Below are positions 29,161 through 62,489 of a stretch of 64,000 bases of DNA, one piece after another (within the stretch, counting starts at the first letter, position 1; every line of letters begins with the position of its first letter). The notes beneath the pieces were generated by a model that was not told the origin of the DNA, ran no database searches, and saw only the letters and a program-made list of their open reading frames with translations. The translations under genes and the position numbers were made by a program. The DNA comes from an uncultured virus (IMG/VR IMGVR_UViG_3300002125_000001). Its lineage: Duplodnaviria; Heunggongvirae; Uroviricota; Caudoviricetes. The DNA lies in the IMG/VR virus record IMGVR_UViG_3300002125_000001. One strand, 5' to 3'.

Positions 29161-29673
29161 TTAGTGATAATCCGTAATTTCCTGTATTTCAATTTCTGTA
29201 ACTTTCGACCAATCTAAATTACCGTTTGCATCTACGGGAATTGGATCATGCTTTGGCACAAAGATTAAACGCCACCCACCATGCAAAGCGCCAGCAAGTT
29301 GCCCTGCCCTATCGTCTTTTAAGCTGTGAAAATTACCTTTATTGTCACGAACTCCCCGCAATTCTTTACGCCCCTTCAATTCTTCAAGTGTTATAGCTCT
29401 TTCAAGTCTCTTTAATTGCTTTTCAAGCACAATATGATTTTTTGGATTTCCACCATCGCCTCCAAATTCGATATTTCCGGGCGTACATTCAGCTTCTACC
29501 TGAGGATTAGCGTAGGAAATGCCAACCATATTATCAACGGCGTCATCATTCCAAACCTTGCCGTCTGCCGACTGACATTCTTTTATGGTTTGGAACGACG
29601 CATTGCCGCCGATGCAACGACAATCGCCAGAACCAGGCAGTTCGCTAAAACTGTTTACAACATTCATTTTCAT
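29161..29673 (-). CDS. class B leader fused to a HigB/RelE-like (plasmid killer) toxin domain
   Basis: C-terminal FHSLKDDRAGQLAGALHGGWRLIFVP...DWSKVTEIEIQEITDYH is the HigB signature; N-terminus MNVVNSFSEL...ASFQ...VDN|M. Confidence 0.8.
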   Translation of the reverse strand: MKMNVVNSFSELPGSGDCRCIGGNASFQTIKECQSADGKVWNDDAVDNMVGISYANPQVEAECTPGNIEFGGDGGNPKNHIVLEKQLKRLERAITLEELKGRKELRGVRDNKGNFHSLKDDRAGQLAGALHGGWRLIFVPKHDPIPVDANGNLDWSKVTEIEIQEITDYH

Positions 29674-29685
29674 TCTCCTTTTTAT

Positions 29686-29713
29686 AGTATGCCGATTTCT
29701 TAAAATAAATCAA
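29686..29713 (-). promoter_or_regulatory. sigma70-like promoter TTGATT-N16-CATACT
   Basis: Related motifs at 44015-44041, 44828-44855, 55595-55623 and 58996-59023, each just upstream of a minus-strand gene. Confidence 0.55.
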
Positions 29714-29737
29714 CAAGCATGGATTCAAAAAGGCAAA

Positions 29738-29757
29738 AGCCCGCCACGTGGCGGGCT
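29738..29757 (-). terminator. palindrome AGCCCGCCACGTGGCGGGCT with minus-strand U-tract; terminator after the tape measure gene
   Basis: Perfect 20-bp palindrome 8 nt after the TMP stop, running into a T-rich tract (TTTTGCCTTTT) on the minus strand. Confidence 0.65.
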
Positions 29758-29765
29758 CGCCCATT

Positions 29766-32700
29766 TCAATAGTTCCTGTTTGCCCCGCCCGCCAGTCCGG
29801 CCGGGCGGTTGTAATTGTTGGTCACGTACTCATTGCGACCCTGCGGCATCATCGCTCGCTGTTGCGTGGCCTGGATCAATTGCGGCATAGAGGTTGTCAG
29901 GAACGTCATCAAATTCGCGTGTTGCAATTGCATATTACGGTCCATTGTGATCGTTGCATCGGCGGCGGGGTCCGTAACATGCCCGAACGCGGCGGCCTGT
30001 ATCCGTTCCCACGTACCCTCCATCGAATCCTTACCGCCCACGTCCTCACTAATCAGACCCCGGTACGTACCGCTTGCGGCCATACGGTCGGAGATCGCCT
30101 CGGCTATTTGTTTACTATTGTCCATTTCCGCCCTTTGGTTGGCGTATTTCTCTTGGATTTGCGCCATTTCCGATTCGGTTACGCCGCGTTCTTTGGCCCG
30201 TTCGGTTTCGCGTTTCTCCTGCACCGTTAAATCACGCGATTGCCGTTCGTATTGGAGTTCCCGGTTGCGTTTTTGAATCGCCTTCATCCAATCGGCACCG
30301 GTTTGCGCACCGGCCATATCGACGGCGAATTGTGTATTGATATTCCCCTCGCGCCGTTGGGATTCGCCGCGTGTTTTTATCATATCGGCTTGGAAACTAT
30401 CGGCTCTTTTCCTACGTTCGGCATCAAGTTTTACCCTTTCTTCTTCAAGTTTTTGGGCGCGTTCCTGTTCTTTTTTTGACGCCGTATTTCTGGCTTCCCG
30501 TCTGTCGTCGGCTTCCATTTTTTGTCTTTTCTGTTTCGCGTCCAGATCGTCCTGCGCCATTTGATGTTGGCCTTTTTTGGTAGCTTGGTCCATAGCCAAT
30601 TTACCCAATTGTGCTGTCCCTTCCTTGTAGCTTGCAGCCAACGTTTCCAGACTTGCCTTTTGATCGCCGTTATTGATGCCTAGTTGCTTCAATATATCTG
30701 CCAATATGTTGTTGCCCTGCATAGCTTGCGCAAGCTGCGCATCGCCCGCCGCGGCGGCGGCCTTCATAGCATCTGATATATCTGCGTTGGCTTCTTTGAG
30801 ACCCTCTTTCATTGCTTCTTTCGCTTTGTCGTCTGCTACCTGTTCATCTGTCAGGCCGGGCGTTGTTTGAGAAGGTGGACCGCCACTTGTTACTGCGCCT
30901 GTCCCTGAAATCTCGCCCGGTTTCGCTTTCTCAATCTGCTCCTTAAAATAGTCGCGTATTTCAATAGCCGTTTTTTCATCGCCATCTTTTGAAAGCGCAT
31001 TATTTATCATACCTTGTACTTTTTTGCGTTCCTCAGGACTTAAATCTGCCGTCTTAAGATAGGAAGCCATTCCTGTTGAAAGTTCTCTTGTCGCGGATGC
31101 CGCACTATCTTTCTCAGCAAACAAATTCCAACCGCTTCTTTCTTTATTGCTCTTATTTGCTTCTACAACGGTAGAACTATCCGCATACAATTTACGGAGT
31201 TCCTGCAAGTTTTTCAGTTGCTCAGGCGTTAATTCAGGCGTTTGTTCCTGTTGCCCCTGTTGTCCTTGCGTCTGCTGTTGCGGCGGCTGTTGTGGGACAT
31301 TCGGGGTATTCGCCCATTGCTGCACGTCCTCGCGGGCGGCCAATTCGCGCAGTTTTTCAACACGTTTATCGCCCGTCAAACCTCTGACTGCATCGTTAAA
31401 TTCACTTATTTTCCCCTCTTTTTGGAAAAATGCTTGAAGGCTGCTCTCCAACTTTTGGCTACCTGCAGTAAACCCTTCCATTATTTCCCTTGCCAACGCT
31501 CTCTTGTCGTCGTCCGTAAGCTCTGCCTTGACCTTTTTCTCTGCCTCTGCTTCGGACATACCCTTGCCCATAAGGTCTTTTTTCTGCTGCTCCAAACTAG
31601 CGATAAACGCCTGATCGCGGCCACCTCCTAAAGACGCCGATTGTGCTAGTGTTTTTTTCATTTGTTCCCAGCCCATATTTTCTATGGGTTTTGCCCACGT
31701 CGTAGGATCGGTCAGCGCGGCCGCTGCTTTCGCCTGTGCTTCTTCCATCTGCTTCCGGTATTCGACTTCTTTCTTGATATACTCCAACTGCATAGCGAAC
31801 CGGATCGCCATCATTTGAAGTTCCAATTGGTGTTTCATCTCAACCATTTTCATTTCAAATTGGGCTTGATCTTCGTTCTGCTGTTGTTGGAGCGCGTGTT
31901 TTTCCTTCATCGCGGCATCGTCTTCCTGATTCTTTTCGGCGGTGTCCAACGTGGCCTGTCTCTCTTCCATTTTCGTGACAATCCGGTCGAATTTTTCGGC
32001 GATTTCAATAAGCTGCAAATCACGCTGAATGTCGAACGGGGATTTGCCGTATGTGTCCATCGTTACGATTTGACGGTCCAGAACGCGGTCGAGCGTCCGT
32101 TGGAACAAATCGCGTTCTCGTTTCCGGTTCGCCAACACGGTCTCGAATGTTCGTATTTCGTTGTTCTTTCGCAACTTGTTGTACTCCACGGCCATATCGA
32201 CCATTTTCTGGTGCAAATCAAGCGCGATCTTTTGTTCCAGATCGAACCGGGCCTTTTGGTACTCGGCTTCATGCTCAACGCGGGCCTCGAACATTGATTT
32301 TTCCGCTTCCAACCGTACCTCCATTTCTCTTTTGGCATCTTCTCCCTGTAGAGCGGCGATACGCATCTGCGAGGCTTCGTACGCGACGAATTCCCGCTTC
32401 TGTCTACCGGCCCACTGCGAACCTCCGGACATATCTTTCCAATCGCCTGCCGACGCCGCGGCTTGCTTGGCCAAATCATGCAATTTATTACGGAATTCTT
32501 TCTCTGTGTTAATTTCGAGTTCGATGCGCGCCTTTTTGGCGGCCTGCAGCTCTTTTTCTTTATCCGCCAATTCATTGGTCATTCTTATTTCTTCATTTTT
32601 CCATTTGTCAAATTCATCAAAAGCCTTCTTTTGATTTTCACGCGCCTTTTCAACTTGTGCTCGCACTTCCACGTACCGTTTGGCTATCCGTTCCTCGGTT

Positions 32701-36253: not shown

Positions 36254-37420
36254 ATGCCCACGCAAAAGAAACAAAAAATGACGCCAGAAAACGATTTCCG
36301 TGAAATACTCCAAGAGACATTCCAAAAAATTGCACACGCGGCCACAGAAAATGAAAAACACTTAAAAAAACAAGAGACCAACAGCAGCATGACCGAGACG
36401 GAAACGATCTCTATACTGATCGAGCCGCTTATTACCATACTGGGGTACGACAAGAACGATCTTCGGGAAATCAGACAAGAATACACAGCAAAAAAGCAAA
36501 CAACAAAAGGGAACAAAAGAGTAGACATTGCGATTCTCCAACGGCAGGATGGGAAAGCAATAATGGTCTGGGAATGCAAGGCAAGAAGAGTGCCGCTCGG
36601 CAACTCAGGGGTTTCGCAGCTTAGGGGATACTTTAAAACTCATAGGGCTGCCATTGGCGTTCTTACAAACGGCATCCACTACCAGTTCTACACAAACATC
36701 GACAACCCCGAAAGTAACGAAATGGACAACGAACCTTTTCTGGAATACAACACAGGCAATAGTCTACCTCCCAATCAACTTGATGTTTTTGAGTACCTTA
36801 GAAAAGACAAGTTTAATCTGAAACAAATACACGAAATAGGAAAAGAACAAAAGGACATCAACAGGATCAAACGGGTACTATACAGCCTTTTTTTGGAAAC
36901 AGGCCCAGACGAATTTTACCAAATAACAGCGGCAATGGCCAAACTCGGGAAAGGACTCGCCGAATCAAAACAGATTATCAAATCCGCCTTCATACGCATG
37001 GTAGAAGACGGCGTAATCCCAGCCGAAAGCACAGGAATTTTATACAAGGAAAAATTCGACGAATGGAAAACCAGTTTGTCAGAAACGACCGTGAAACTTT
37101 TTGAAAAATTAGAAAAGTACGTGTTAAGTCTCGAAAATGTCAAAACAAACCTTTCAAGTGCGTACAAAAGCTACGCGGCCCGCAAACAATTCATGCAAAT
37201 GATGTACTGCGGCGGAAGAAAGAAACTAAGAATTCTACTGCTGGGATTGAACGTAGAAGAAATGGGAAAAGCCAAAAAATCATTGGAAAACACAGAGATA
37301 CAATATCACGGCAAAGAACTTAGACTCTTTATAGAGAACGAGGACAATTTGGAGAGAGCCAAACCGATTATTGAAAGAGCATACGAAAAAGCATACGAAA
37401 AAACGACAAAAAGAAAATAG
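36254..37420 (+). CDS. HsdR_N-like PD-(D/E)XK nuclease with C-terminal DUF5655-like domain (moron, possible defence gene)
   Basis: LIEPLITILGYD..EY...RVDIAI....WECKA...QLRGYF...GVLTNGIHYQFY; opposite strand, A-rich. Confidence 0.75.
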   Translation: MPTQKKQKMTPENDFREILQETFQKIAHAATENEKHLKKQETNSSMTETETISILIEPLITILGYDKNDLREIRQEYTAKKQTTKGNKRVDIAILQRQDGKAIMVWECKARRVPLGNSGVSQLRGYFKTHRAAIGVLTNGIHYQFYTNIDNPESNEMDNEPFLEYNTGNSLPPNQLDVFEYLRKDKFNLKQIHEIGKEQKDINRIKRVLYSLFLETGPDEFYQITAAMAKLGKGLAESKQIIKSAFIRMVEDGVIPAESTGILYKEKFDEWKTSLSETTVKLFEKLEKYVLSLENVKTNLSSAYKSYAARKQFMQMMYCGGRKKLRILLLGLNVEEMGKAKKSLENTEIQYHGKELRLFIENEDNLERAKPIIERAYEKAYEKTTKRK

Positions 37421-38915: not shown

Positions 38916-39281
38916 TTAATCTTTTCCTAAACTGTCATTATCATCCTGGATAATATCGGTTTTAATGTTGTGGATTGCCGTTCTGCCTTCCGGAGCGCAT
39001 CGAGAACTGAACGCCTGTACAATTTCTAAGCGAATGTAGCGGTATGGGCACATCTGTTCCGCTTCAAGTTCCGGCGGCATCAAAACATTTTCAACGTTGA
39101 ATGCGGCTATGCGGTCGTTGTGTTTCACAAAATTGCGTATCGTTACCTGCAATTCGTCGATAACCAATTTGTCGCCCCGGACAAACATTTCAACAAACTC
39201 ATCTATTGACCGGACATCCCAAATCGTACAACCGGGTAGCGTCCAACCTCTGGGCGGCCTTATTGTTATTTTAATTTTCAT
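38916..39281 (-). CDS. partner gene of leader ORF 39278..39697
   Basis: ATGA overlap with the upstream leader ORF. Confidence 0.65.
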   Translation of the reverse strand: MKIKITIRPPRGWTLPGCTIWDVRSIDEFVEMFVRGDKLVIDELQVTIRNFVKHNDRIAAFNVENVLMPPELEAEQMCPYRYIRLEIVQAFSSRCAPEGRTAIHNIKTDIIQDDNDSLGKD

Positions 39282-39697
39282 TGTGATCCGCCATATTTTT
39301 CTTTAAAATAATCATCGTATTGGACAATATCTGATATTGTATAAACGCCCAATTCCATTAGCTCTTTTTTTCTATCTGCGTAATCATCTTTCCGTTTATC
39401 AATCATCGACATCATCGCCTTATTAAGGTGCTGTTGAATTCTATCGCCGTCAGTTGGCATCCTTAAACGCCGCGATTCTTCGATAACTTCCTCTTCTAGC
39501 CCTAGAATAATATCTTTTTGTTTTTCCGCATCCCATTCGTTCCACGGTTGTGGTTTGCCTATAAACTCAGCATTATCAACCGTTGCGCCTTCGGTCGTGT
39601 TTTCCTCTTGAAACGCTGACATATTGCCGCTACCACCGGCTTTGCCCGTTTCAAGCAATTCATTGAAACTACTCGCTACTCTCATTTTATGTTTCAT
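39278..39697 (-). CDS. class B leader + unknown cargo
   Basis: MRVASSFNELLETGKAGGSGNMSAFQ...VDN. Confidence 0.75.
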   Translation of the reverse strand: MKHKMRVASSFNELLETGKAGGSGNMSAFQEENTTEGATVDNAEFIGKPQPWNEWDAEKQKDIILGLEEEVIEESRRLRMPTDGDRIQQHLNKAMMSMIDKRKDDYADRKKELMELGVYTISDIVQYDDYFKEKYGGSQ

Positions 39698-39756: not shown

Positions 39757-40074
39757 CTAAGGGTTATCGGGGCGACGGTTCCAAATATGGCTCACGTACT
39801 GCAACACGTTTTTAATCGAAACTTCATTATCTGCAGCACAATCGTGGTATGTCCGTAACAAACAAGGAAAACAAGCAACGTGGAAGTAATGGGGGTCTGC
39901 GTTAGACGGCGTATAGCTGTAAACAACATACACATCTGTTTTTCCGCATTTAGGACATGGCAGCAATTCGCTCTCTGTCTGTCGGATTAAACGCTTTAAT
40001 TCATAAGCATCCTCCAAATCGTCCAAAGAGTATCGCAATTTTTCAGGAATATTTTGTTTTATTGTCGTTTTCAT
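39757..40074 (-). CDS. Lar-like (restriction alleviation family) Zn-finger partner protein
   Basis: LLPCPKCG...VACFPC...WNRR. Confidence 0.7.
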   Translation of the reverse strand: MKTTIKQNIPEKLRYSLDDLEDAYELKRLIRQTESELLPCPKCGKTDVYVVYSYTPSNADPHYFHVACFPCLLRTYHDCAADNEVSIKNVLQYVSHIWNRRPDNP

Positions 40075-40092: not shown

Positions 40093-40422
40093 CTATTCAA
40101 ACCAGCCGTGCCCGTATTTCCATTTGCCAAAACCATGCGTATTCTTAAATTGATCCGCCTGTTCTCTTGTAATTGACCGATAGCCTTCAAGAAAAAACGG
40201 ATTGCCTTCAGAACCCGGTTCTGTTACAACAATGTCATACCCATCTCTATCCTGCGCAATATACAGCGAAATATCATAAAAAGATACGGGAGATAAATCC
40301 TCAACGGGCTTTTCTCCGGTCGGCATATTCTCCACTGAAACAGATTGAAACGCTGACATATTGCAGCTGCCACCGGCATTGCCCGTTTCAAGCAATTCAT
40401 TGAAACTACCCACTACTCGCAT
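40093..40422 (-). CDS. class B leader + cargo X
   Basis: MRVVGSFNELLETGNAGGSCNMSAFQSVSVEN|MP; cargo ends FKNTHGFGKW. Confidence 0.75.
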   Translation of the reverse strand: MRVVGSFNELLETGNAGGSCNMSAFQSVSVENMPTGEKPVEDLSPVSFYDISLYIAQDRDGYDIVVTEPGSEGNPFFLEGYRSITREQADQFKNTHGFGKWKYGHGWFE

Positions 40423-40478: not shown

Positions 40479-41588
40479 TCATTCATTTCCCGCCTTGAAA
40501 TTATACAACGGTTTTATTATTTTGACAACTTCCATCGTATCGCGGCTGTTCTCGATAATCTCGTTCATCGGCTTGTACGCCTGCGGTGCCTCGTCAATAG
40601 TCGCCCGGTTCACGGTGGACGAACAGATTCCTTTCATCGATTTCTCGTATTCGATTAGCGTGATCTTTTCCTTCGCCTCTTTGCGGCTCATTACACGCCC
40701 GGCACCGTGCGGAGCCGAAAAGTTCCAATTGGCGTTCCCCTTCCCTACGCAAAGGAGGCTACCGTCCCGCATATTCATAGGCACCAATATACAGTCGCCG
40801 CTTCGGGCCGATACCGCACCTTTTCGTAAGATCATCGCATCCAAATCAATGTAATTGTGTACGACGGAAAACGTATCGACGATCTTGAACTTCGCCTGTT
40901 TTGATATGTCGCGGGCAATGGCCCGTCGGTTTAAGTCGGCGTATTGTTGGACGATGCCCATATCATGTAAATAATCGGACATCGGGGAGCCTTCCAAGTA
41001 GGCCAGTGCCCTATCGTCGCCTTCCTTTGTCCGACCCAACGTGTCGGCGGCCACGTTCTGATAATAGTCGCAAACCTGTTTGCCCAGATTGCGACTTCCG
41101 GAATGGACAATCAAATAGAGCTGTCCGTCATCGTCTTGCCCCAATTCAATAAAATGGTTCCCTCCGCCGAGCGTGCCCATTGAATGGGACGCACGGTGTA
41201 AATCGACGTGTTTTACGCATTTCAATTCAAATAAATCAATATCCTCGTTGAAATGATGCGGATCGTGTCGGGTGTTAAAACCAGCGGGTATGTTTTTTAT
41301 AATCGCCTTGTCGAGTTGGTTTGGATCGACCCGTTTCTCCTTTATCAACGCGACGAACATCCCGCAACAACCGTCCGTCCCCACTAAATTGGGGACAATC
41401 TTATCCGTAATCGTCATGGTCATTCCGACCGTACCGACCTGCCCGCTGTGGACATCGGGCATTACGCGGATTTGGCTTCCTTCGACAAATGGCTGGTTCA
41501 GGATATGCCGAATCTGCGCAATTGCGCCGGGTTCGGTGGTATCCGTGAATATCTTTGCCGTATTGTATGTTCCTTGTAATTCAATCAT
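40479..41588 (-). CDS. rtcB: RtcB RNA ligase
   Basis: MPDVHSG, VGTDGCCG, GTLGGGNHFIE, VHSGSRNLG, HNYID..ILRKGA, SAPHGAGRVMSR, DEAPQAYK. Confidence 0.95.
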   Translation of the reverse strand: MIELQGTYNTAKIFTDTTEPGAIAQIRHILNQPFVEGSQIRVMPDVHSGQVGTVGMTMTITDKIVPNLVGTDGCCGMFVALIKEKRVDPNQLDKAIIKNIPAGFNTRHDPHHFNEDIDLFELKCVKHVDLHRASHSMGTLGGGNHFIELGQDDDGQLYLIVHSGSRNLGKQVCDYYQNVAADTLGRTKEGDDRALAYLEGSPMSDYLHDMGIVQQYADLNRRAIARDISKQAKFKIVDTFSVVHNYIDLDAMILRKGAVSARSGDCILVPMNMRDGSLLCVGKGNANWNFSAPHGAGRVMSRKEAKEKITLIEYEKSMKGICSSTVNRATIDEAPQAYKPMNEIIENSRDTMEVVKIIKPLYNFKAGNE

Positions 41589-48869: not shown

Positions 48870-49292
48870 TCACTTTCGTAAAAGTTGTTCCCGGTACGCT
48901 TGGTAGCTTTCGGGCGTTAGGTTCAGGTAACGGAGCATTTCCTGCGAAGGCGTCTCCGTTTTTCTAATCGCATCCTGTACTTGCAACATCCCCTTTTCGC
49001 GTGAGGCTCGTTCGGCGCCCCAATCGTCATACGGATCATCCTGCCGGTCCCCGGCGGCGTCGCCCGTAGCGAAATCGGGGTAGACCCGCTTGATCGTTTT
49101 GGCTACATCGCGTGGGTGCATCCGACCCCCGTCGTCCAAATAAGAGAGCATATCGGGCAGGGTAGTGCCCTGGAACGCGGCGTTTACGCTCACGGCGCGC
49201 AGGCTACGGTCATCAAACGTAAACATAGCGGGTATGCCAAATGCCGCGTTCTGTTGCGTCTGTAGCTGCGAAAATAGTGGGATACTGTCCAT
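48870..49292 (-). CDS. class C leader + unknown cargo
   Basis: 41-aa leader identical to that of 49748..50110. Confidence 0.75.
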   Translation of the reverse strand: MDSIPLFSQLQTQQNAAFGIPAMFTFDDRSLRAVSVNAAFQGTTLPDMLSYLDDGGRMHPRDVAKTIKRVYPDFATGDAAGDRQDDPYDDWGAERASREKGMLQVQDAIRKTETPSQEMLRYLNLTPESYQAYREQLLRK

Positions 49293-49330: not shown

Positions 49331-49729
49331 CTACTTACCTGTCCTTTTATTCCATGCGCTGCAGACGCGCCTTAACGCTTCTACAAAATCGTCTTCGGTA
49401 TCTTCGGCATTCCACACTCTTGTTTGGATTCGGCAATCTTCAATATCTGAGGGCGGATCAGTAGCAGCATTTCGGCAACACACAACATACAACTCATGCG
49501 GGCATTCCTTCATGGGGATTTCGCCGTTTGGTTGCAGCTGAGTTGGGAACATATTACCGGGGCGGTACATGTAATGTACATGCGGACGATCATTTCCGCA
49601 ATGCGCACAGGGCAGCAAGGTGGCATCAGCCTCGTTAATGAGGGTAGCTATTTCGGACTCGTTTTCAAGCTCGTACAAAAAACAACGAGTACGGCCATCA
49701 CAATTGCCTGTTTTTAGTTTTGTATTCAT
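49331..49729 (-). CDS. Lar-like Zn-finger partner protein
   Basis: LLPCAHCG...WNKR; N-terminus similar to 46642..47025; GAGG RBS. Confidence 0.7.
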   Translation of the reverse strand: MNTKLKTGNCDGRTRCFLYELENESEIATLINEADATLLPCAHCGNDRPHVHYMYRPGNMFPTQLQPNGEIPMKECPHELYVVCCRNAATDPPSDIEDCRIQTRVWNAEDTEDDFVEALRRVCSAWNKRTGK

Positions 49730-49747: not shown

Positions 49748-50110
49748 CTAAAATAAGTACCCCCACTTATCAAACTTATGCGTATTTTTGAACGCGATTG
49801 CTTCTTGAGCCGTTATATTATCCATATCTTCGATATACGCTGTTTGTTTGCCGCCATCGGGGTCTGAAACGGCAATCCCACACCTGTCCGTTCCTTGAAC
49901 AGGGTGTAGCGAAAAAACGTAATGTCTGTCTGGACGCAATTCTGATAAAGAGATTAAGCCGCTCGGAAAGTTTTCTACGGAAACGTCTTGGAACGCGGCG
50001 TTTACGCTCACGGCGCGCAGGCTACGGTCATCAAACGTAAACATAGCGGGTATGCCAAATGCCGCGTTCTGCTGCGTCTGCAACTGCGAAAAAAGAGGGA
50101 TAGAATCCAT
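49748..50110 (-). CDS. class C leader + cargo X
   Basis: MDSIPLFSQLQ...AAFQDVSVEN|FP; cargo ends FKNTHKFDKW. Confidence 0.75.
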   Translation of the reverse strand: MDSIPLFSQLQTQQNAAFGIPAMFTFDDRSLRAVSVNAAFQDVSVENFPSGLISLSELRPDRHYVFSLHPVQGTDRCGIAVSDPDGGKQTAYIEDMDNITAQEAIAFKNTHKFDKWGYLF

Positions 50111-50483: not shown

Positions 50484-50828
50484 CTATCTTTGCATAAGAG
50501 CTTGTTTGATACTTGCCACATCCTGCTCCAAACGATCAAATCGCGTATTTGTGTCGTTATGCAACCGTTCTATTTTTGCGTCTACGTTTGCGAAACCGTT
50601 CTTTGTAGCAATTTCCAAATTATCAATTCGGGCTTCAAGGCCATCGACCCGCTTGCTCAAATTCTGGCCCCATTGTGGCATAGGAAGGTTACCCTGGACG
50701 GACGCGGGGGAACCGACGGGGTTCACGCCCGGCGCGTTCTCAATCGTATTGAACGCGCCCAAATTCGACAATCCGACGTTTCCGGTTCCAAGCGATTCAA
50801 ACATCCCAATATCTGCGAGTTTTTCCAT
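50484..50828 (-). CDS. class A leader + coiled-coil cargo Y (paralog of 48517..48864)
   Basis: MEKLADIGMFESL...GAFNTIEN; RIDNLEIATKNGFANVDAK. Confidence 0.75.
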   Translation of the reverse strand: MEKLADIGMFESLGTGNVGLSNLGAFNTIENAPGVNPVGSPASVQGNLPMPQWGQNLSKRVDGLEARIDNLEIATKNGFANVDAKIERLHNDTNTRFDRLEQDVASIKQALMQR

Positions 50829-50857: not shown

Positions 50858-51250
50858 CTATTGTGGCAATTCGTCGGGCGAGCCGCTACCAAAACTAGGC
50901 GAGCCGATAAGGGCTGGCGGGCCGCCTGAGGGGACGCTCGGCGTGTCTGAGGACTGGTCATTCCCCATACCGCCTTTTTGCAGGTCGGCCACGGCGGTCC
51001 GCGTACCACGCATACCAGCATCCAATCTATTATTCAACTCGTCAAGAACCCCCTCAAGTTTCGCTTGTTCGGCCTCGGCCTCGGCGTCCGCCCGGAGCCT
51101 GCGAAGCGAATCAATTTGCGTCATCCAACTTTCGACGCTTGTTTTAATATCCTCAACAGTCGCGTTAAACACGGACATGGGCGACATCATGCGCCGGTTC
51201 GCGCTCGATTGGAGATTCTCAAACATTGAAATATCGGCAAGTTTTTCCAT
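50858..51250 (-). CDS. class A leader + helical cargo
   Basis: MEKLADISMFENLQSSANRRMMSPMSVFN. Confidence 0.75.
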   Translation of the reverse strand: MEKLADISMFENLQSSANRRMMSPMSVFNATVEDIKTSVESWMTQIDSLRRLRADAEAEAEQAKLEGVLDELNNRLDAGMRGTRTAVADLQKGGMGNDQSSDTPSVPSGGPPALIGSPSFGSGSPDELPQ

Positions 51251-51262: not shown

Positions 51263-51532
51263 TTAAATATCAATGATTTCGTTGACCGCCTCCGCGGCGG
51301 TCTTCAAATTAAACTGCGCATTCGCAATATCGACGGCGGACGGCGGATGACGACGTGCTTCAAGCTGCAACAAATACAACTCATGTCGCAAATCGTCCCG
51401 CTTCTTCTCCAAACGCCACAGGGCAGCTTCAACTTCTTTGAGCCCCTGCTCCACGGCGTATATTCGATCTGAAATAGACATTATCGGTTCAATAGTCGCT
51501 GGCCGCCTCGAACCTGGCCTTTTCTTTTTCAA
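51263..51532 (-). CDS. small coiled-coil protein (possible partner of 51489..52283)
   Basis: Overlaps or abuts the 3' end of the leader ORF; start uncertain. Confidence 0.5.
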   Translation of the reverse strand: MKKKRPGSRRPATIEPIMSISDRIYAVEQGLKEVEAALWRLEKKRDDLRHELYLLQLEARRHPPSAVDIANAQFNLKTAAEAVNEIIDI

Positions 51533-52283
51533 ACTTAGCTTGATATTCTGCTAACTCTTGCCTCGCTTTTTCAATATATTCGGATTCAGAAACAGGGTCT
51601 TTTGAATAGGGAAACCGCCGCTCCAACTGCGCTAATTTCATCTCAGCCTGTTCAAACCGATCTTGGGCATCAAACATCCAACGTCGTAATGCTGGCGTGT
51701 TTTGGGAATCTTCCCATTTCTTTATCTCGTCAAATTTTGGGATTGTGCGCTTTATATCGTCAAGCTGCTCTTTAATGACAGATGGGCGTTCGTCATAGTC
51801 ACGTTCGTTTCCTTTTTCATCGTATTTATCGGGGTTTCCCGTGGCAATCCTTTTCGCCCGCTCCAATTTGTCGCTTTCGCTTTCTGTTATTTGCCGCTGC
51901 GGTCGATCATCCTCTATCGGCAACTTTTTTTGGACCGGCTGTTGGTCAATTTCGGCCAACAATTGCTGAGCTTTCGCCTGCGTGTCTTTGCCGACACGAC
52001 GGCGGGTAGTTGCGACAGCATCAAAAAACTGACGAGCGACTTCTCTATCTCGTTCGTCCCAGCTACCAATTACGTCCGCCAACGTATCCGGCAACTCCAA
52101 TTGGTTTTGGTCCAACGGACCACTTTCATCTCTTAGCTCGTTTAATTTTTCTTGATAATATGCGGCACGGGCGCCGTTAAACGTATGTTTGTAGTTAAAC
52201 ACGCTCATCTGCGACATGCCCATCGCGTTGTGTGCGCCGGATTGAAGGTTCTCAAACACAGAAAGGTCTGCTAGTTTTTGCAT
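51489..52283 (-). CDS. class A leader + helical cargo
   Basis: MQKLADLSVFENLQSGAHNAMGMSQMSVFN. Confidence 0.75.
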   Translation of the reverse strand: MQKLADLSVFENLQSGAHNAMGMSQMSVFNYKHTFNGARAAYYQEKLNELRDESGPLDQNQLELPDTLADVIGSWDERDREVARQFFDAVATTRRRVGKDTQAKAQQLLAEIDQQPVQKKLPIEDDRPQRQITESESDKLERAKRIATGNPDKYDEKGNERDYDERPSVIKEQLDDIKRTIPKFDEIKKWEDSQNTPALRRWMFDAQDRFEQAEMKLAQLERRFPYSKDPVSESEYIEKARQELAEYQAKFEKEKARFEAASDY

Positions 52284-52406: not shown

Positions 52407-54101
52407 TTAAGCCGCCATTTTGAATTCATCGCCATCTTCTTCCAAACGCGACGCTTCGTCGGCGACGATAAGTTTCTTCAATTCCGGCGACATGTCCAAC
52501 AAAAACGGGTACCGGGACGCCAGCGAATGGAGCTGCGCAAGGTAGACACGTTTCATATCGTCCGACGATTCGCCCAGGTACATCGCCATAGCGTTCCGCG
52601 TCTCGGCGAATACCTCGTTCATCGCCTTCGTAAACGCGGTATCTACGCTTTTTCCGCTTATCGCGTCCGCCCCGTCATCGGTAGTTGACTGGGCGATCCG
52701 CGTAGCATCGGGCAACGAATCGGCTTTGGAATCCCCGTACTTTTTAATATGGGACAACACGGCGGCCTGCGCCGCCTTCAATTCCACGTCAAGGTTTTCC
52801 AACTCACGCAAGTCGGCGGGATCGAGCGGTTTCTTAGCCTTGAGCAATTTTGCGTTCTTTTCCTCCAACTCCGCGATCCGTGTCCGAATGTCTACTGCAA
52901 TAGCACGCAACCGCTTGCGCTCCGCATTCTTTTTTTCAACCTCTTCACTATCGAACGAACCCTTCGGTCGCCCGGTCGAGGCCGACTCCCACAACCCGTC
53001 CTCAGTCTGCCGGAACTTAAACCCGCCACGCGCGTCGTTCAGAAGGTTCAGAATCAACGCCTCATTGAATGAGGTAACGAGTACCTGTGCCGCGTTTCTT
53101 AATTTCTTAACCGTACTTACGAACAGGTCTTCACCCTCTTCCAAATCGTCGGAGGCCACGATTTCGGGGTTATCCTGCATCTCCTCACGAGCGGGCACCT
53201 CCTCAAGAACAATTTCGGGCGTGTCCGGCATAGCTTCGGACAAACTTGCCACTTTCGCGGGACCTGTCGGCGGCTCAATTGTGATTTTGTAACCCTCGGC
53301 TGTTGTAAACGATTGCACGCCGGGCATGACCGGGCCCGCGCCCATTGATTCCAAAGGCGGCGCGACGGCTACTTTTATTTCTGTATGCGCCGTGCCGTGC
53401 GCATTCGCGTTTTTCGCATCGGTGTGTCCCTGTTCTTCTCTAAAAAGTCGTGTAGATTCCATAACCGGCGACCCCGCAAGATAATCATTGTTGATGTACG
53501 TAGTAATGATATTCAACGTTTCTCCCGCTTTCATTTCTTTTCGTTCGTTAATGAGCAACCCGGCCCCATCCGATAGGCTACAAGCGCCCTGTTTACGGGG
53601 CAGGATAGCGAGATGGTCGGCCCGGATGTTGATGATACGCCCGATATACGGTTCGCTATTCCATACGCCCTCATCCATGATGAGTTCGGAGAACAGACCG
53701 GTCGATATTTCCATCGGGAGCCGGTGTTTGATATGCTCAAGCAGGGTAGGGCACTTCTCCTCGGCCTTGCGTCTATCGATCCACGCTTCGGCCTTGAGCT
53801 TACCGTCCACAAAATGCGTATTCATAATCATCCCGACCGCCTGCCGCTTGTAGACTTCGAGATCGGTCGCCGTATCGCCCCGGAACGGATGTTCGATTAC
53901 GACGGGCTTGAAATTCCACATTTTGGGCGTTTTTGCCAACTCTTCGGTATCGTAATAAACGGGCCCCTGCGAGCCGGTATGGACCCCTTCGAGGATCATC
54001 GTCATCGGGGCGACGACGTATTCACGGTCGTCAAGCGTTTCGTACCGAACCGTCGGGTCGATAGTTACGTTCCAAATGGTTTCTATTTTGTTGCGTGGCA
54101 T
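52407..54101 (-). CDS. prohead protease/scaffold (DUF2213-like)
   Basis: PMTMILEGVH..YYDTEEL...WNFKPVVIEHP...EISTG...DHLAILP...GACSLSDGAGLLIN, followed by a long acidic coiled tail. Confidence 0.85.
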   Translation of the reverse strand: MPRNKIETIWNVTIDPTVRYETLDDREYVVAPMTMILEGVHTGSQGPVYYDTEELAKTPKMWNFKPVVIEHPFRGDTATDLEVYKRQAVGMIMNTHFVDGKLKAEAWIDRRKAEEKCPTLLEHIKHRLPMEISTGLFSELIMDEGVWNSEPYIGRIINIRADHLAILPRKQGACSLSDGAGLLINERKEMKAGETLNIITTYINNDYLAGSPVMESTRLFREEQGHTDAKNANAHGTAHTEIKVAVAPPLESMGAGPVMPGVQSFTTAEGYKITIEPPTGPAKVASLSEAMPDTPEIVLEEVPAREEMQDNPEIVASDDLEEGEDLFVSTVKKLRNAAQVLVTSFNEALILNLLNDARGGFKFRQTEDGLWESASTGRPKGSFDSEEVEKKNAERKRLRAIAVDIRTRIAELEEKNAKLLKAKKPLDPADLRELENLDVELKAAQAAVLSHIKKYGDSKADSLPDATRIAQSTTDDGADAISGKSVDTAFTKAMNEVFAETRNAMAMYLGESSDDMKRVYLAQLHSLASRYPFLLDMSPELKKLIVADEASRLEEDGDEFKMAA

Positions 54102-54744: not shown

Positions 54745-55278
54745 ATGTTTGCTGATATATCCGTTTTTGAGAATTTACAGCGGGGCGCACACAGCGCTAT
54801 GGGTCTGTCACATATCGCCGTTTTCAACGGGTTCGTTGACGACGAGGCGAAGCGAAGAGCCGAATGGTGCGACGCCGAAATCGGTAAAATGAAACAAGAA
54901 ATAACTGAAATACGCGATGAGCTGCTAAAAGCGCACAATAGCTACAATTTTCAACAGTATTTAATGGAACGTGGCGAAAGCGATAAATCACGAAAGGAAG
55001 AGTTGACAAGAAAAATAGAATACCTTGACGAACGAAACAAGCAACTACAGGCGACGGACACAGATGGAAAATTTGTTACCGTATGTGCAGGAATTGAATC
55101 GTGCCTTGAGGACTTTCAAACACAAATTAGCAGGGCAATAGACAACCCGGCGCGACCAATACCACCAAAAAGACCACCAGGACAATTACCAAAACGCCCT
55201 CCTCAAGGATTTCATAATTCTACGCATGGCACGCCACTCTGTTTAGGGCTCTCCGTGTTTAATAAACCTTCCGAATAG
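54745..55278 (+). CDS. class A leader + coiled-coil cargo, on the plus strand
   Basis: MFADISVFENLQRGAHSAMGLSHIAVFN; GGAG RBS and TATAAT upstream. Confidence 0.75.
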   Translation: MFADISVFENLQRGAHSAMGLSHIAVFNGFVDDEAKRRAEWCDAEIGKMKQEITEIRDELLKAHNSYNFQQYLMERGESDKSRKEELTRKIEYLDERNKQLQATDTDGKFVTVCAGIESCLEDFQTQISRAIDNPARPIPPKRPPGQLPKRPPQGFHNSTHGTPLCLGLSVFNKPSE

Positions 55279-55556
55279 GCTATACGGTGCATGGAAAAAA
55301 ATACGCGGCACATACTATCCGAGTAGCAATTTAATAACTGCTCAGGGGAGAACCACGGATAAAATTCTGAAGCCTCGGCTCTAAAAATATAATTGATAAG
55401 CATATCTACCCTATACCCGTTATGTATGTCAAGACGCACATTTTCACAATCCAAATCTTCCTGTAGCGCCTTTTTCCATTTGTACCGTTGCTCGGCCCTA
55501 GAACGTGGGCCAACCTTTGGAATCTCAGCCAATACCTTATCCAGTTGTGAACCCAT
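55212..55556 (-). CDS. convergent partner of 54745..55278
   Basis: 3' ends overlap by 67 nt; own promoter-like motif at 55595..55623. Confidence 0.55.
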   Translation of the reverse strand: MGSQLDKVLAEIPKVGPRSRAEQRYKWKKALQEDLDCENVRLDIHNGYRVDMLINYIFRAEASEFYPWFSPEQLLNCYSDSMCRVFFSMHRIAYSEGLLNTESPKQSGVPCVEL

Positions 55557-55684: not shown

Positions 55685-56239
55685 TCATTTATCTGCGACC
55701 GCCTGCGAGTAATCGCGGTCCGCGAACAGTTCGGCAAGACCCGAAATCTGCGACAACCGCAGTACCTCGTCCGGCTCCATGCCCAACTCACGGCCGATCT
55801 TTTTATCCGACCAGTTCCGACGCTTCAACTCAACCACAATATCGCTCATAGAAGACACCAGATGAACGCCGCGTGCGCGGTTATGCCGTATGGTCGCCGC
55901 GATACGATCACAGCGATCCGTGCGCGATTCGTTGATAACAACAACCGGTAGATGCGATAGTTTCAATTTGTCTTTGCCGATAATATGACGATGGAAACCG
56001 TCCACTACCTCAAACAAATCGCCATTAAAAAACGTTACGATAGGCTGCGTGAAACCGTCCGCCCTGATCGATAGTTCAAGAAGTTTCAATTCGGGCGTAG
56101 CGACCTTATTGGGGTTGTAGTCGTTCGCAACGACCAACTCGGAGGGCACCCAATAGACCTTTGAAACGGGGTGCTCGCCTGCCCACGCGGGCGCGTGTTC
56201 ATACGCCGAAAAATCGCGTGTATCACCTACAGCCCCCAT
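55685..56239 (-). CDS. ParB/Srx-domain protein, IbrB/YbdM-like
   Basis: ANDYNPNKVA..ELKLLELSI..DGFTQPIV...VVDGFHR...ATIRHNRARG. Confidence 0.9.
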   Translation of the reverse strand: MGAVGDTRDFSAYEHAPAWAGEHPVSKVYWVPSELVVANDYNPNKVATPELKLLELSIRADGFTQPIVTFFNGDLFEVVDGFHRHIIGKDKLKLSHLPVVVINESRTDRCDRIAATIRHNRARGVHLVSSMSDIVVELKRRNWSDKKIGRELGMEPDEVLRLSQISGLAELFADRDYSQAVADK

Positions 56240-57414
56240 GCGGCCCTCCGCTTTTTCATTAAAATTTTGTACTTTTCGTAGGCGTCCGATTTCGTGGGCG
56301 AAAACGAAAGCCCCTTGCACCAATAGTCGTTCCGCAACAGCGCCCGGCATATCCGACGCCAGCTGGGTTTACGATCCGAAACGGCATTTTCTTGTTTAAG
56401 CGGCAACTCATCGGGTATCTCCGCGTACCCGCGATCTCGCCACCATTTCAAAAACACAGCAATTTTGTTCTCGTAATGTTCGCAAAGATGGCCCGGCATG
56501 GAATCGAGCAGCAACCGTGCGAACGCCTGCCACGTGATGCCCGCCGGTTTGGAAACCTTTATATTACCCAATATATTGCCCGACGTTTGCGAATAGAGCG
56601 AGCCCGCGTTCGCACCGTTTACGCGGGCAACGACGCGGGCCCATGTCTCCGGCTCGATCCGGTGGAACAGCCACAAACCTTTCCGCTGATCGTCGCCGTA
56701 AGGCTGACAAATCCGCATCTGATGTATCGAAAGGCCCGCCTTGTGCATCAGATCGTACAACAGGTTATAGGGCAGCCGCGTCTTACCGAAAAAAGTCCAT
56801 ATATCTTCCGTTTTCCAATCGAAGATCGGGTACGCATTGTAGACGCCGCCCGGCATACGGGTCGTCCACGCCTTATTTGCGAACCGTTCTTTGCTCTCGC
56901 TCCAAATGGTACGCCGCCGGTTCAAACTCTCCGCCATCCGGATACCGACAAGGCAACACGTAGAAACGCCGCCACCGTACCATACGCCAAACTGCGGCAC
57001 AAACTCTTCAAACTCCATCCCGTACCGGAAAAAGGGGAAGTCGGCACCCGTCTTCACTGGATAATTGGGCAACGGGCGTACCCAATCTTTTTCACGACCC
57101 GGCTCCCAACAAATCCAACGCGGCTCAAACTGTGAAACGGCGTTACGCAAAAGGATAGGAAGCGTACACCAAAAAGGCTCGATATGCTCCGCGTACAAAG
57201 AAAACAGCTCGGAAACATGCGCAATCGTATGCGCGTACTGGGCCTCCAAATCAATAAAGAACAAGCCGACTTTTCGACCGCGACGGGCCGCTTCTGCCAA
57301 CGCAAGATGCGTCATCACCGACGAATCCTTCCCGCCCGAGAAAGATACGCAAACGCGGTCAAAACTATCGAAGCAAAACGCGATCCGCTCTTGGGCGGCT
57401 TCAAGCACATTCAT
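56227..57414 (-). CDS. PAPS-reductase family protein with DUF3440, IbrA/YbdN-like
   Basis: VSFSGGKDS, FIDLEAQY, GIRMAESLNR, YPIFDWKTEDIW, MRICQPYGDDQRKGL, SWRRIC..LLRNDYWC. Confidence 0.92.
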   Translation of the reverse strand: MNVLEAAQERIAFCFDSFDRVCVSFSGGKDSSVMTHLALAEAARRGRKVGLFFIDLEAQYAHTIAHVSELFSLYAEHIEPFWCTLPILLRNAVSQFEPRWICWEPGREKDWVRPLPNYPVKTGADFPFFRYGMEFEEFVPQFGVWYGGGVSTCCLVGIRMAESLNRRRTIWSESKERFANKAWTTRMPGGVYNAYPIFDWKTEDIWTFFGKTRLPYNLLYDLMHKAGLSIHQMRICQPYGDDQRKGLWLFHRIEPETWARVVARVNGANAGSLYSQTSGNILGNIKVSKPAGITWQAFARLLLDSMPGHLCEHYENKIAVFLKWWRDRGYAEIPDELPLKQENAVSDRKPSWRRICRALLRNDYWCKGLSFSPTKSDAYEKYKILMKKRRAAWGL

Positions 57415-59095: not shown

Positions 59096-60247
59096 CTAAA
59101 TAACGGGCTTCGGCGCAGACAATCTCGCGTGCAAGATACCTGCCCTTCCGTAAAAGTCCGATTTAAGACGAGGCAACAAAATGCAGATTACCTTGAAGTG
59201 GATTTCAAATCCTCCTTCTGTTTGCCACTGGACGGTGGTGATATCCATACCGGTAACGGCTTGGATGGTATTCTGGTCGAGTTCGATCATGACGAAAGTT
59301 CCGTAGGGTAGGAACTCGGAGCAATTGATCGACTTGATTTCTTTGATCTTTTCCAACCGTTCTCGGAGCGTAATAGTGCTCGTTTGCCCGGCGGTATGAT
59401 CGTTATAATCATCGTCGAGGATTTGGTCAAAATCGGGGCTATGGTAGATAGCGAACGGTCCGTAGTGCCGGATGTCGTGCAGGTTCCGTCGAGCGTCGAG
59501 GATTTGCCTGTAGAGGATAGCTGGCGACCAATCGGGATCGCGTGATCCATCGACCCTTGCCCAGTTGGTAAAGACTTTTGTAAGTCTTTGCGGGTAGTTG
59601 CACACGCCGTAGACGTTTCCGCCTCCGAACTGGAAATCGGGTTCGACGCCGAGCGCGAGTCTTTCGACTTTTTCGGCGACCATCCGGGACGCCATACCTG
59701 CGGTGGTTACGTCGATGGGCATATTGGAGTTCCGGGAGACGGCGATTTGCCGTGCGCTGAAGCTGAAATCCTTGTGGATGATCGGCAACGGCATCTGATC
59801 CATGTCGTACATGGGCCGGTCCGCGTCCCCTTTGCGAAGCCCGTCCATACTGACGGTTGCGCCGGTGATATTGGATTGCCGTTCGTACTGCCACACGGTT
59901 TTCCCTAGCGCGTTTGGCAGGTTGACGTTAAGCCCGGCGGCTCGTAGGTCGTTGAAGAACCGGAGTCGTGGCATTGCTGCGGCGACGACGGTTTCGTCGA
60001 TCATAACCCAGTCATCCTTTCGGAGCGTAGCTGCGTTTGTGGTCTGCACGTTTTTGAGAACGGGCTTCCCGTCTTTCCAACCGATTTGTTGCGAGATGAG
60101 CGAGGTATGCCCGTCATCGTGCAGGAACGGTCGGATGCAGCGGGGGTCGAAGTTGTAGGTAAGCAACCGGGTGGCAACGTCGCCGGACCCGCCGATTAGA
60201 CTTGCGCCGTTCGTAATAGAAACGGGCATCGCGTTCAGATTTTGCAT
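59096..60247 (-). CDS. major capsid protein (HK97 fold, linocin/encapsulin-like family)
   Basis: NAATLRKDDW..IDETVV, SMDGL, PLPIIHKDFSFSARQI..SR, VAEKVE; AAGGA RBS, biased codon usage, strong terminator. Confidence 0.88.
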   Translation of the reverse strand: MQNLNAMPVSITNGASLIGGSGDVATRLLTYNFDPRCIRPFLHDDGHTSLISQQIGWKDGKPVLKNVQTTNAATLRKDDWVMIDETVVAAAMPRLRFFNDLRAAGLNVNLPNALGKTVWQYERQSNITGATVSMDGLRKGDADRPMYDMDQMPLPIIHKDFSFSARQIAVSRNSNMPIDVTTAGMASRMVAEKVERLALGVEPDFQFGGGNVYGVCNYPQRLTKVFTNWARVDGSRDPDWSPAILYRQILDARRNLHDIRHYGPFAIYHSPDFDQILDDDYNDHTAGQTSTITLRERLEKIKEIKSINCSEFLPYGTFVMIELDQNTIQAVTGMDITTVQWQTEGGFEIHFKVICILLPRLKSDFYGRAGILHARLSAPKPVI

Positions 60248-61340: not shown

Positions 61341-61341
61341 A

Positions 61342-61773
61342 CTATTCTTGTATTTCTCTTTTTTTATGGCCTTTTGATTTTTCTTTAGCACCGTACCAAA
61401 GTGGCGGTCCGTATGTTAGCGCATCTTCAAACGTATCCTCATAGCCCATTTTGTTGCCATCCAAATCTCTTCCCAACGCGATGCGCCCGAGTGCTTCTCC
61501 TTGTTTTTGTATATTTCTTTCTACGCCTTCCTCTATTTTCTTTTGCAATTCTGCGTTTACATCCTGTGCTTTCGCAAGCAATTTGGTTCTTTCTTTTTGG
61601 CTTGTTTCTCTATTAGCCGCCTCGGACAAACCTTCATATTTTCGTTCTAAAGGCTGTTCGCTTTGCGACCCGAAATTATCTGCGAACACGCTCATGGGCG
61701 ACCGCGTGGCCATTTGTTGGTTAGCTGTCGCCTGTAAATTTTCAAAAACTGAAATATCTGCGAGTTTTTGCAT
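61342..61773 (-). CDS. class A leader + unknown cargo
   Basis: MQKLADISVFENLQATANQQMATRSPMSVFADN. Confidence 0.75.
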   Translation of the reverse strand: MQKLADISVFENLQATANQQMATRSPMSVFADNFGSQSEQPLERKYEGLSEAANRETSQKERTKLLAKAQDVNAELQKKIEEGVERNIQKQGEALGRIALGRDLDGNKMGYEDTFEDALTYGPPLWYGAKEKSKGHKKREIQE

Positions 61774-61785
61774 CGTTTATTTCGA

Positions 61786-62193
61786 TCAAATCTGGCATTG
61801 GATCACGACCCTTTCGGACATGAAATCTGGCGGGTACTGTTTCTGTTCCCAACCGAGTTCTGCTATTGTCGATTGTGATACGATCCGTTTTGCGTTTTTC
61901 AACAAATTCGGATTTGCCTTTTCATCGGGCGTTAGCCCCTGTAGCGTCTCTTCGGTTCCCAGCATCACGAAACTCCCGACGACGAGCACGCGGTCGGGGA
62001 ACACCGTGTTTTGTTTTGCGTTTGTTTGTACGGTGTCGTCTTTTTGTATCTCTTCGGTTACGGTATCCCACCGGCATTTGATAACGACCGGTTCGGTGAA
62101 TATATCCTCGAACTGTTCGTCAACGCCGGTAAGTTTCCAATAGATACAATCGTCGGTCAGTGTAAGGTAATAAACAAACATCACAATCAACAA
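61786..62193 (-). CDS. putative head-closure/head-tail joining protein
   Basis: CIYWK..GVDEQF...FTEPVVIKCRW pattern typical of head-completion proteins. Confidence 0.65.
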   Translation of the reverse strand: MLIVMFVYYLTLTDDCIYWKLTGVDEQFEDIFTEPVVIKCRWDTVTEEIQKDDTVQTNAKQNTVFPDRVLVVGSFVMLGTEETLQGLTPDEKANPNLLKNAKRIVSQSTIAELGWEQKQYPPDFMSERVVIQCQI

Positions 62194-62216
62194 CTGCGCC
62201 GCTACTTTCTAATTCC

Positions 62217-62489
62217 CTACTTGAAATACAAATGGTCCTTACGGCTATCTTCGGACACGGTGTACAACCCGTTATCCTCGATCAATTCGTCTTGTCTCTT
62301 GGCCAGCGCGTTATAGTCGGGCCACCGGGTCGATTCTCGCAACGCGCCCGAAACGGCGTCCAGTTCGCATAAACTACACGAATCGCCCTTGTTTGCGTTG
62401 TATACATCCTGGAAGGAACTCATGGCATTTACACTGGTCCCTCCCACGAACGTATCGAAAAAATTAGTAATTGGTTGTCTATCGTTCAT
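62217..62489 (-). CDS. divergent leader (SVNAMSSFQDVYN) + short cargo
   Basis: MNDRQPITNFFDTF...VNAMSSFQDVYN. Confidence 0.55.
   Translation of the reverse strand: MNDRQPITNFFDTFVGGTSVNAMSSFQDVYNANKGDSCSLCELDAVSGALRESTRWPDYNALAKRQDELIEDNGLYTVSEDSRKDHLYFK

Follow-up and report, generated by a model that had tools for sequence, protein, structure and literature searches.

A shared N-terminal leader with an asparagine junction on 29 diverse proteins of an uncultured tailed phage: a candidate head-packaging tag

The 64,000-base stretch of DNA analyzed here (the window) covers bases 32778-96777 of the 167,820-base record of an uncultured virus, IMGVR_UViG_3300002125_000001, which is linear, rated 94% complete, and referred to as G000 herein. 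Within the window lie genes for a DUF2213 head protease, a DUF6260 capsid protein, and a tape measure protein, along with a family of genes whose products share an N-terminal leader peptide and continue into diverse downstream parts (cargos). Portal, MuF, and terminase genes and the phage's own replication genes lie beyond the window in G000, and neither a tyrosine integrase nor sigma-70 region 2 was found in this 94% complete record with PF00589 and PF04542. The first-pass annotation of the window had listed about 17 leader-bearing open reading frames (ORFs). All 17 exist with the N-termini and strands described, 16 on the minus strand and the one starting at 54745 on the plus strand, but 12 further intact members occur outside the window, so that the family comprises 29 of about 221 called genes. 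As also described, the densest cluster lies behind the prohead protease gene, with 11 members in the adjoining 7 kb.

The leaders are 22-47 residues long and consist of two or three boxes, with a variable linker joining box 1, L-A-[DN]-I-S-x-F-E-x-L-Q, to box 2, S-x-M-S-V-F-[NDQ]. Among 163 leaders examined, 150 could be parsed; the residue following the Phe of box 2 (position P1) is Asn in 133 of these, and the next (P1') is D/A/S/G/E/T in 121. An extra [VILT]-x-N occurs within 12 residues past box 2 in 49/150 leaders as compared to 109/1230 background windows (8.9%), being present in 37 of the 133 Asn-type leaders and 12 of the 17 others. The earlier statement that leaders end in [SA]xF[NQ] needs amending, as this box is often not the last element, [VILT]-x-N coming after it in the same 49 leaders. 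Only one of the 163 leader proteins contains a hydrophobic or membrane segment. Besides the intact genes, G000 holds a fragment of 17 residues (genome 99539) and two leader copies that are broken, one at window 4590 and one at genome 116912; in the decayed gene at genome 116912-117324, boxes 1 and 2 stand in two frames with a stop between them. We considered box 1 as an amphipathic helix and dropped the idea, its hydrophobic moment at 100 degrees being low (0.13). A de novo search for further leader classes among the other genes gave only paralog pairs, no significant box 1-like segment was found inside the scaffold, protease, portal, or MuF proteins, and an ESM Atlas search with the leader gave nothing usable.

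Similarity of this kind could reflect a DNA-level repeat, a translation-boosting start, or chance. True DNA repeats do exist in the genome, one of them inside leader codons (a 16-bp palindrome tolerated in the linker of 48514), and the DNA of both class C leaders is nearly the same. Against this, the class A pattern matched the N-terminus of 19 of 520 ORFs from the whole genome and 0 in each of 10 base-shuffled genomes, which have about 180-216 ORFs each. A profile built from 131 leaders of other sources only placed the class A ORFs at ranks 1-19 of the same 520 (E ≤ 3.3e-7), with both class C ORFs next at 20 and 21 (E about 1e-4). When box 1 was compared pairwise among 19 members, identity was 0.81, 0.92, and 0.45 at codon positions 1, 2, and 3, and the 40 bases upstream of the leader genes were 0.30 identical. 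Since third codon positions vary and the upstream DNA is unrelated, selection acts on the peptide. In addition, a 27-leader profile matched 210 protein clusters among 1.84 billion representatives (E ≤ 0.001); among the matches listed, the match begins at residue 13 or before in 145/150, and 134 come from outside G000, although two of these are near-copies. What is conserved in the class A leader is the protein sequence rather than the DNA. For class A, a repeat or chance is largely refuted by the codon-position pattern, the shuffles, and the profile matches, and we regard such an origin as highly improbable for the family. Of the three leader classes proposed at first, A and C are related, whereas B is tied to the family only through common cargos, as the same cargo families sit behind A, B (and C) leaders, and through the Asn junction. 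The individual members are collected in Table 1.

Table 1 Leader genes, partner genes, and other features of G000 (window coordinates unless marked genome)
Feature	Coordinates	Strand	Matches and remarks
Frameshifted, decayed class A leader gene copy with promoter cassette	4590..4710	+	
Gene behind the HigB-like cargo	28633..29154	-	paralog behind second HigB-like gene; without antitoxin family match
Class B leader, HigB/RelE-like toxin domain right after Asn47	29161..29673	-	PHROG 3066 toxin E 1.2e-4; family profile against PDB 6f8s_B E 0.0015, HigB E 0.017
HsdR-N-like nuclease	36254..37420	opposite	
Class B leader, 139-aa cargo	39278..39697	-	function unassigned
Lar-like zinc-finger gene behind 40422	39757..40074	-	Pfam Lar_restr_allev E 1.8e-5 (under cut-off); TIGR03655 E 5.8e-6
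Class B leader, cargo	40093..40422	-	paralogous to 50110, 47422
RtcB RNA ligase	40479..41588		
Class A leader (short), cargo	45343..45705	-	no assignment
Class A leader, DUF4160 (DhiT-like toxin) domain from Asn46-Met47	46172..46609	-	Pfam PF13711 E 1.5e-10
Lar-like zinc-finger gene behind 47422	46642..46965	-	Pfam E 0.0024
Class A leader, cargo	47018..47422	-	paralogous to 50110, 40422
Class A leader, cargo	47461..47991	-	no assignment
Class B leader, cargo	47996..48514	-	no assignment; 16-bp palindrome in leader linker codons (48461-48476)
Class A leader, coiled-coil-like cargo	48517..48864	-	paralog of 50828
Class C leader, cargo	48870..49292	-	no assignment
Zinc-finger gene behind 50110	49331..49729	-	paralog of two Lar-like genes by N-terminal similarity; without family match
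Class C leader, cargo	49748..50110	-	paralogous to 40422, 47422; look-alikes are unnamed phage proteins (ESM Atlas)
Class A leader, coiled-coil-like cargo	50484..50828	-	paralog of 48864
Class A leader, cargo	50858..51250	-	cargo has three relatives elsewhere, each beginning behind Asn
Class A leader, 264-aa acidic cargo	51489..52283	-	first gene behind protease
Prohead protease (DUF2213)	52407..54101	-	invariant His71, Ser133, His163; catalytic domain ends at conserved Asn
Class A leader, cargo with C-terminal second box 2	54745..55278	+	own -10 promoter; convergent with partner
Convergent partner gene	55212..55556	-	three paralogs face three paralogous leader genes elsewhere in genome
PAPS-reductase-like and ParB gene pair	55685..57414		
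Major capsid protein (DUF6260, PHROG 771)	59096..60247	-	predicted propeptide end Asn71
Class A leader, cargo	61342..61773	-	no assignment
Divergent leader (only box 2 clear), short cargo	62217..62489	-	weakest member
Convergent two-gene cassettes	54745-55556; genome 25900-26809, 97896-98754, 126904-127783		
16-bp palindrome, window copies	4632, 29740, 42628, 48461, 55652		
Repeat of about 19 bp	54584, 4508; genome 25697, 25810, 97711, 101397, 112055, 126822		
Ribosomal protein S6 homolog	genome 26809-27237 region		L002:9812-10237, E 3e-13

The cargos had been described as unrelated, and most are indeed diverse, the 157 cargos compared falling into 108 clusters with 83 singletons. Paralogs do occur, namely 48864 and 50828 (E 9e-26) and 50110 and 40422 (E 8e-15, with 47422 at 2e-3); the latter family is found behind class A (47422), class B (40422), and class C (50110) leaders and is each time followed by a zinc-finger gene. 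Recurrent partner genes lie behind three other cargo families. The proposal that the cargos are toxins or anti-defense proteins fits 5 of the 29, one HigB-like and four DUF4160-like, but the rest have no toxin match, and scans of Pfam, PHROGs, and NCBIfam (PADLOC was not searched) returned no anti-defense family among them. Three DUF4160-like members exceed the PF13711 cut-off of 23 bits, 46609 at 41.6 bits and two outside the window at 26.1 and 36.5 bits; the fourth is assigned by homology only. The evidence for the HigB identity is moderate: HigB-like cargos match PHROG 3066 (E 1e-4 to 2e-7) and nothing in Pfam or NCBIfam, and in a search with a low-confidence structure model HigB took the top four rows (E 0.3-0.6). 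Both cargo types occur behind class A and class B leaders. A second HigB-like gene in G000 carries yet another N-terminus, and two ORFs (genome 99841, 108489) seem to have a further N-terminus in common, which in one case precedes a HigB-like cargo. DUF4160 and DUF2442 constitute the DhiTA toxin-antitoxin pair (accessible text of PMC8198452 and PMC12065111), and DhiT blocks growth in Escherichia coli (PMC8198452). A DUF2442-like gene (E 1.2e-4) lies behind one of the four leader-DUF4160 genes, while no recognized antitoxin directly follows the other three or either HigB-like gene. A homolog search with the DUF4160 cargo returned only itself, and among plasmids two DUF4160/DUF2442 records came up (E about 1e-3). 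Outside G000, a tandem leader precedes a whole extracytoplasmic function (ECF) sigma factor in protein P0003, encoded on a 2.6-kb contig, and this protein is a candidate for a transcription factor that is injected.

Cleavage of the leader after Asn predicts that an Asn immediately precedes each captured domain, irrespective of the leader in front. Among HigB-like proteins, four that all differ in their N-termini have an invariant Asn directly before the domain. Similarly, five DUF4160-like proteins whose leaders differ in class and length share an invariant Asn-Met, which in four of five reads Asn-Met-Ser-Pro. Leaderless DUF4160 proteins from four host metagenome-assembled genomes (MAGs) start with Met-Ser-Pro (three) or Met-Ser-Ser (one), which suggests that this domain was captured behind the leader with its ancestral start Met intact. 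In a further member with Asn23, PHROG 18237 spans residues 27-97, with PHROG position 3 at residue 27. Several more cargo families, read by eye, start after Asn at any leader length.

The same type of Asn site recurs in proteins of the head. In the protease, the three residues His71, Ser133, and His163 are invariant in 45 aligned homologs, and its structure model (predicted local distance difference test score of 87) best matched T4 gp21 (E 7e-4) followed by herpesvirus assemblins, with TM-scores of 0.41-0.47; as modeled, the DUF2213 protease has a gp21-like fold. The sequence G-x-G-L-L-[IV]-N closes its catalytic domain, and this Asn is present in 56 of 64 parsed homologs (65 examined). For the capsid protein, all 38 aligned proteins have an Asn at most 8 residues before the conserved (T/S)-L-R at the start of the Pfam domain, in an alignment built without the five loci whose matched range contains stops and without the rest of the relatives' loci. 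V-x-N sites are retained among orthologs of the probable scaffold (genome 110004-110702), and our phage's copy has a box-2-like site; relative to shuffles, the cut motif is enriched in two scaffold orthologs. In G000 the probable scaffold and its neighbor (genome 109371-110702; L003:13371-14699) lie 17 kb from the capsid gene, and in two relatives the pair directly precedes it. Among the protease homologs P0157-P0221, close ones have long variable tails (372-966 aa), and distant ones end in a scaffold-type tail motif like that of the separate scaffold gene here. The scaffold thus seems to have split off from the protease in the leader-bearing clade. Prohead proteases of this sort act inside the prohead, and together with the matched Asn site this would place the cargo inside the prohead as well. 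Our literature search, which covered neither subscription papers nor supplements, found no description of an Asn-specific prohead protease, of an Asn rule for DUF2213, or of this leader.

Taken together, these results make it probable (about 0.62 by our estimate) that the leader is a head-packaging tag resembling the capsid-targeting sequence (CTS) of T4 and removed by an Asn-specific prohead protease. Boxes 1 and 2 would bind part of the assembling prohead, after which the DUF2213 serine protease would cut behind Asn inside the prohead, either at box 2 or at the following [VILT]-x-N. Judged from sequence, the same type of site would release the capsid propeptide, the protease domain, and the scaffold. 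By analogy with the T4 internal proteins, the trimmed cargos would remain inside the head and pass into the next host along with the DNA. The tag would be modular, with captured genes, including toxin-antitoxin toxins and, in a relative, the ECF sigma factor, fused behind it with their own start intact. The first-pass annotation had pictured a virion-loading system analogous to that of T4, larger and modular; the Asn junction, the site in the head proteins, the gp21-like fold, the near-confinement to one clade, and the lack of a membrane segment in 162 of 163 proteins all speak for this picture, which is still a suggestion.

Packaged and trimmed proteins need not be effectors, as they might mostly be internal filler, core proteins, or neutral passengers. 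In line with this, 24 of the 29 cargos of G000 have no toxin-like match, few of the more than 110 outside cargos match any family, nearly all cargos other than the toxin-like ones match nothing, many cargos are small, acidic, and helical-looking, and the scatter over clusters and singletons is accompanied by two decayed copies. However, intact-looking toxin domains and a whole ECF sigma factor are fused to the leader with their native start kept. Structural cores are usually conserved between relatives, whereas these cargos are not. We therefore view filler or passengers as a rather unlikely account of most cargos.

To describe where else the tag occurs, we scanned 138 loci, leaving out six loci of our own record, with a degenerate pattern and then the profile, and found full leaders in 35; two of the metagenome loci differ so little from G000 that they do not count as independent. 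Other genes are shared with G000 by 24 of the 35, and most others are short contigs. Eleven of the 35 come from a genome collection and all of these are Planctomycetaceae MAGs. In one such MAG (G001), all 13 profile matches fall on a single 171,649-base contig, JAISLW010000268.1, with none in the other about 5 Mb. This contig encodes a capsid protein 72.6% identical to that of G000 and 14 leaders, four in a row just behind the protease gene. A tyrosine integrase lies at its end with host-like genes beyond, so that the contig looks like a prophage. Among 261 genomes of the family, 7 have the leader and 6 a protease match. All three genomes with close proteases (57-60% identical) have leaders and none of the three with distant ones (34-45%) does; four leader-positive MAGs have no protease match. 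Nor do hits lie mainly in non-phage contexts, the matches being on phage-like contigs except for two loci, L253 and the 3.7-kb L252. In 1.1 Mb of sequence from 80 loci with distant relatives of the capsid protein (35-47% identical), no leader match fell under E 1, and searches of viral contigs with the class A alignment and with the protease confirmed nothing. The leader is therefore mostly a trait of one clade of related Planctomycetaceae phages and appears near-confined to it. Since the relatives sit in Planctomycetaceae MAGs, a member of the Planctomycetaceae is the likely host of G000. Sequencing run X1, labeled termite gut metagenome, contains 99% of the sampled words of G000 and is its possible source, and no RNA sequencing run containing G000 is listed. 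Joints in run X1 with a short side of 20-33 letters were rejected as deletion variants, lying on or near repeated promoter or palindrome sequences or the end of the stretch.

Several observations weigh against a head-packaging tag. Class B leaders and 62489 did not rise above background with the independent profile (E 0.07 to over 10, with 62489, the weakest member, at 9.8), and the homology of class B to class A is not established by it. The Asn junctions represent a handful of events kept by selection, since cargo sequences of one family share ancestry and each family counts as one event rather than four or five. Depletion of the cut motif in cargos is not significant (63 observed versus 73 ± 8 expected), and neither is its enrichment in the scaffold of G000 (3 versus 1.9). 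Five of the seven leader-positive genomes were first found via the leader itself. The remaining leader genes had been described as interleaved among virion genes, but some lie away from head genes with promoters of their own, and several of the 12 outside the window lie amid replication genes. A strong -10 box precedes 9/29 members as compared to 17/193 other genes, and 5/6 plus-strand members have their own promoter. Given these promoters and positions, late co-expression of the members stays putative. Four leader genes that encode a C-terminal copy of box 2 each form a convergent two-gene cassette with a paralogous partner, and five proteins carry such a copy at the very C-terminus, where cutting would free nothing. 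This suggests that box 2 binds as well as gets cut and is otherwise unexplained. Finally, locus L253 places a leader gene in a host defense island (RloAB, Fic), where the 14 kb read shows no gene of evident phage type.

Much of this would fit a leader that works in the cytoplasm, during infection or lysogeny, as a signal for docking or degradation recognized by a phage chaperone, an adaptor, or a host protease; it would sit on accessory genes with promoters of their own, and virions would be uninvolved. The own promoters and opposite-strand cassettes, the C-terminal box-2 copies, the member in the defense island, and the integrated relative, whose tyrosine integrase lies beside host-like genes, are all consistent with such a role. 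It would leave unexplained, however, why the junction residue is the one conserved in capsid, protease, and scaffold and why leader genes cluster behind the protease in two phages, and 254 of the 261 host-family genomes have no leader match. We consider a cytoplasmic signal unlikely.

Some features lie close to these subjects. At L253:5081-5335, the leader is followed by a short tail without a family match that, we presume, recalls the C-terminus of a RelB/YefM-type antitoxin. A 67-aa ORF (genome 162077-161877) ends in a box-2 copy and has no N-terminal leader. The perfect 16-bp palindrome has 17 exact copies in G000 (19 with one mismatch allowed), mostly intergenic and once within the 48514 leader codons; none was found in four MAGs searched, none are expected by chance, and it is a candidate operator, terminator, or small mobile repeat. 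The second repeat, of about 19 bp, stands beside extended -10 promoters of opposite-strand cassettes.

The toxin domains allow two further ideas. If the head-packaging tag doubled as a safety catch, toxins drawn from toxin-antitoxin modules and the sigma factor would be kept inactive by the leader in the producing cell and recover their native N-terminus only on being cut after Asn in the prohead, no antitoxin would be needed, and the phage would inject an armed and rapidly changing set of some thirty proteins. With one short fusion, any host gene that a phage captures could then, as a general principle, become an effector delivered by the virion. We hold this combination of address label and safety catch to be possible, though doubtful. 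Alternatively, leader-toxin fusions could be zymogens made by a prophage and activated by the head protease of a superinfecting relative, giving abortive infection. Such zymogens would account for toxin domains placed behind a site matched to a phage protease and for temperate relatives with GmrSD, HNH, and HIRAN genes next to leader genes. Yet only 5/29 cargos are toxin-like and 11 members stand in the head operon; moreover, a phage growing lytically would trigger the toxins with its own protease, unless this were restricted to the prohead. Activation by a superinfecting phage therefore strikes us as quite unlikely. At four loci (L244:8406-10531, L254:6273-10307, L242, and L245), leader genes face opposite-strand GmrSD, HNH, or HIRAN genes, and in L254 tail-like genes give way to host genes, as at the end of a prophage. 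In T4, internal protein IPI inhibits GmrSD (accessible text of PMC9391042).

Should the leader prove to be a head-packaging tag, about 1 in 8 phage genes would be virion cargo, and a 30-residue motif would suffice to predict, by sequence only, the injected proteome of an entire clade of uncultured Planctomycetaceae phages. It would further provide a testable rule, cleavage after Asn, for DUF2213 head proteases, a packaging tag of a specificity other than T4's for loading proteins into capsids, and a case in which a sigma factor and toxins of toxin-antitoxin systems have been taken up as probable payload of the virion.

Among known systems, host export and ribosomally synthesized and post-translationally modified peptide (RiPP) leaders are expected on host genes beside secretion or modification genes, which was not the case here, with the leader missing from nearly all host-family genomes. 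The HigB and DhiT families are matched by cargo domains, and a DUF2442-like gene follows one of them, but the host copies do not have the 30-55-residue N-terminal extension that the cargos carry. In MuF polymorphic toxins, toxin domains lie behind a head-associated N-terminal part and phage delivery has been proposed (accessible text of PMC5576092 and PMC5512222). There the carrier is a MuF domain rather than a short peptide, whereas here most cargos are not toxins, a cognate antitoxin gene follows only one, no MuF domain was found in the leader proteins with Pfam, and the MuF of G000 is a separate gene; the leader system is not a MuF toxin system. Closer is SPN3US, where one prohead protease, gp245, cuts capsid, itself, and internal proteins at A-X-E, often at several sites per propeptide (PMC10052503). 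One motif would likewise serve capsid, protease, and internal proteins here, with Asn in place of Glu; the SPN3US propeptides are mostly 111-254 residues long and, in the accessible part of that source, are not described as one shared motif. In the temperate non-T4 phage P1, the N-terminal 30-mer of DarB is enough to carry a reporter into the head (PMC9024508). No consensus among Dar N-termini emerged in that work, whereas here one consensus is found on 19 proteins of one genome and over 130 elsewhere.

The closest likeness is to T4. Its CTS is about 10 residues long, and the gp21 site ends in Glu. In T-even phages the internal proteins are diverse and only the CTS is conserved (PMC3012670, in the part accessible), and those of T4 are packaged and injected (PMC9391042). 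As with IPI-III, a short shared N-terminal peptide precedes diverse small soluble proteins in G000, a prohead protease modeled with the gp21/assemblin fold is encoded in the same genome, and the leader appears to end in a site shared with the phage's own processed head proteins. The leader here has 22-47 residues, two or three boxes, and has a predicted P1 Asn; its head module is DUF6260/DUF2213 rather than T4-type, and its cargos number about 30, with toxin-antitoxin toxins among them. No cargo matched a T4 internal-protein family in Pfam or PHROGs. With an apparently different sequence, another predicted P1 residue, and another head module, it is not a member of the T4 system. The principle is known from T4 and P1, and the leader system of G000 most likely works like T4 capsid targeting with components of its own.

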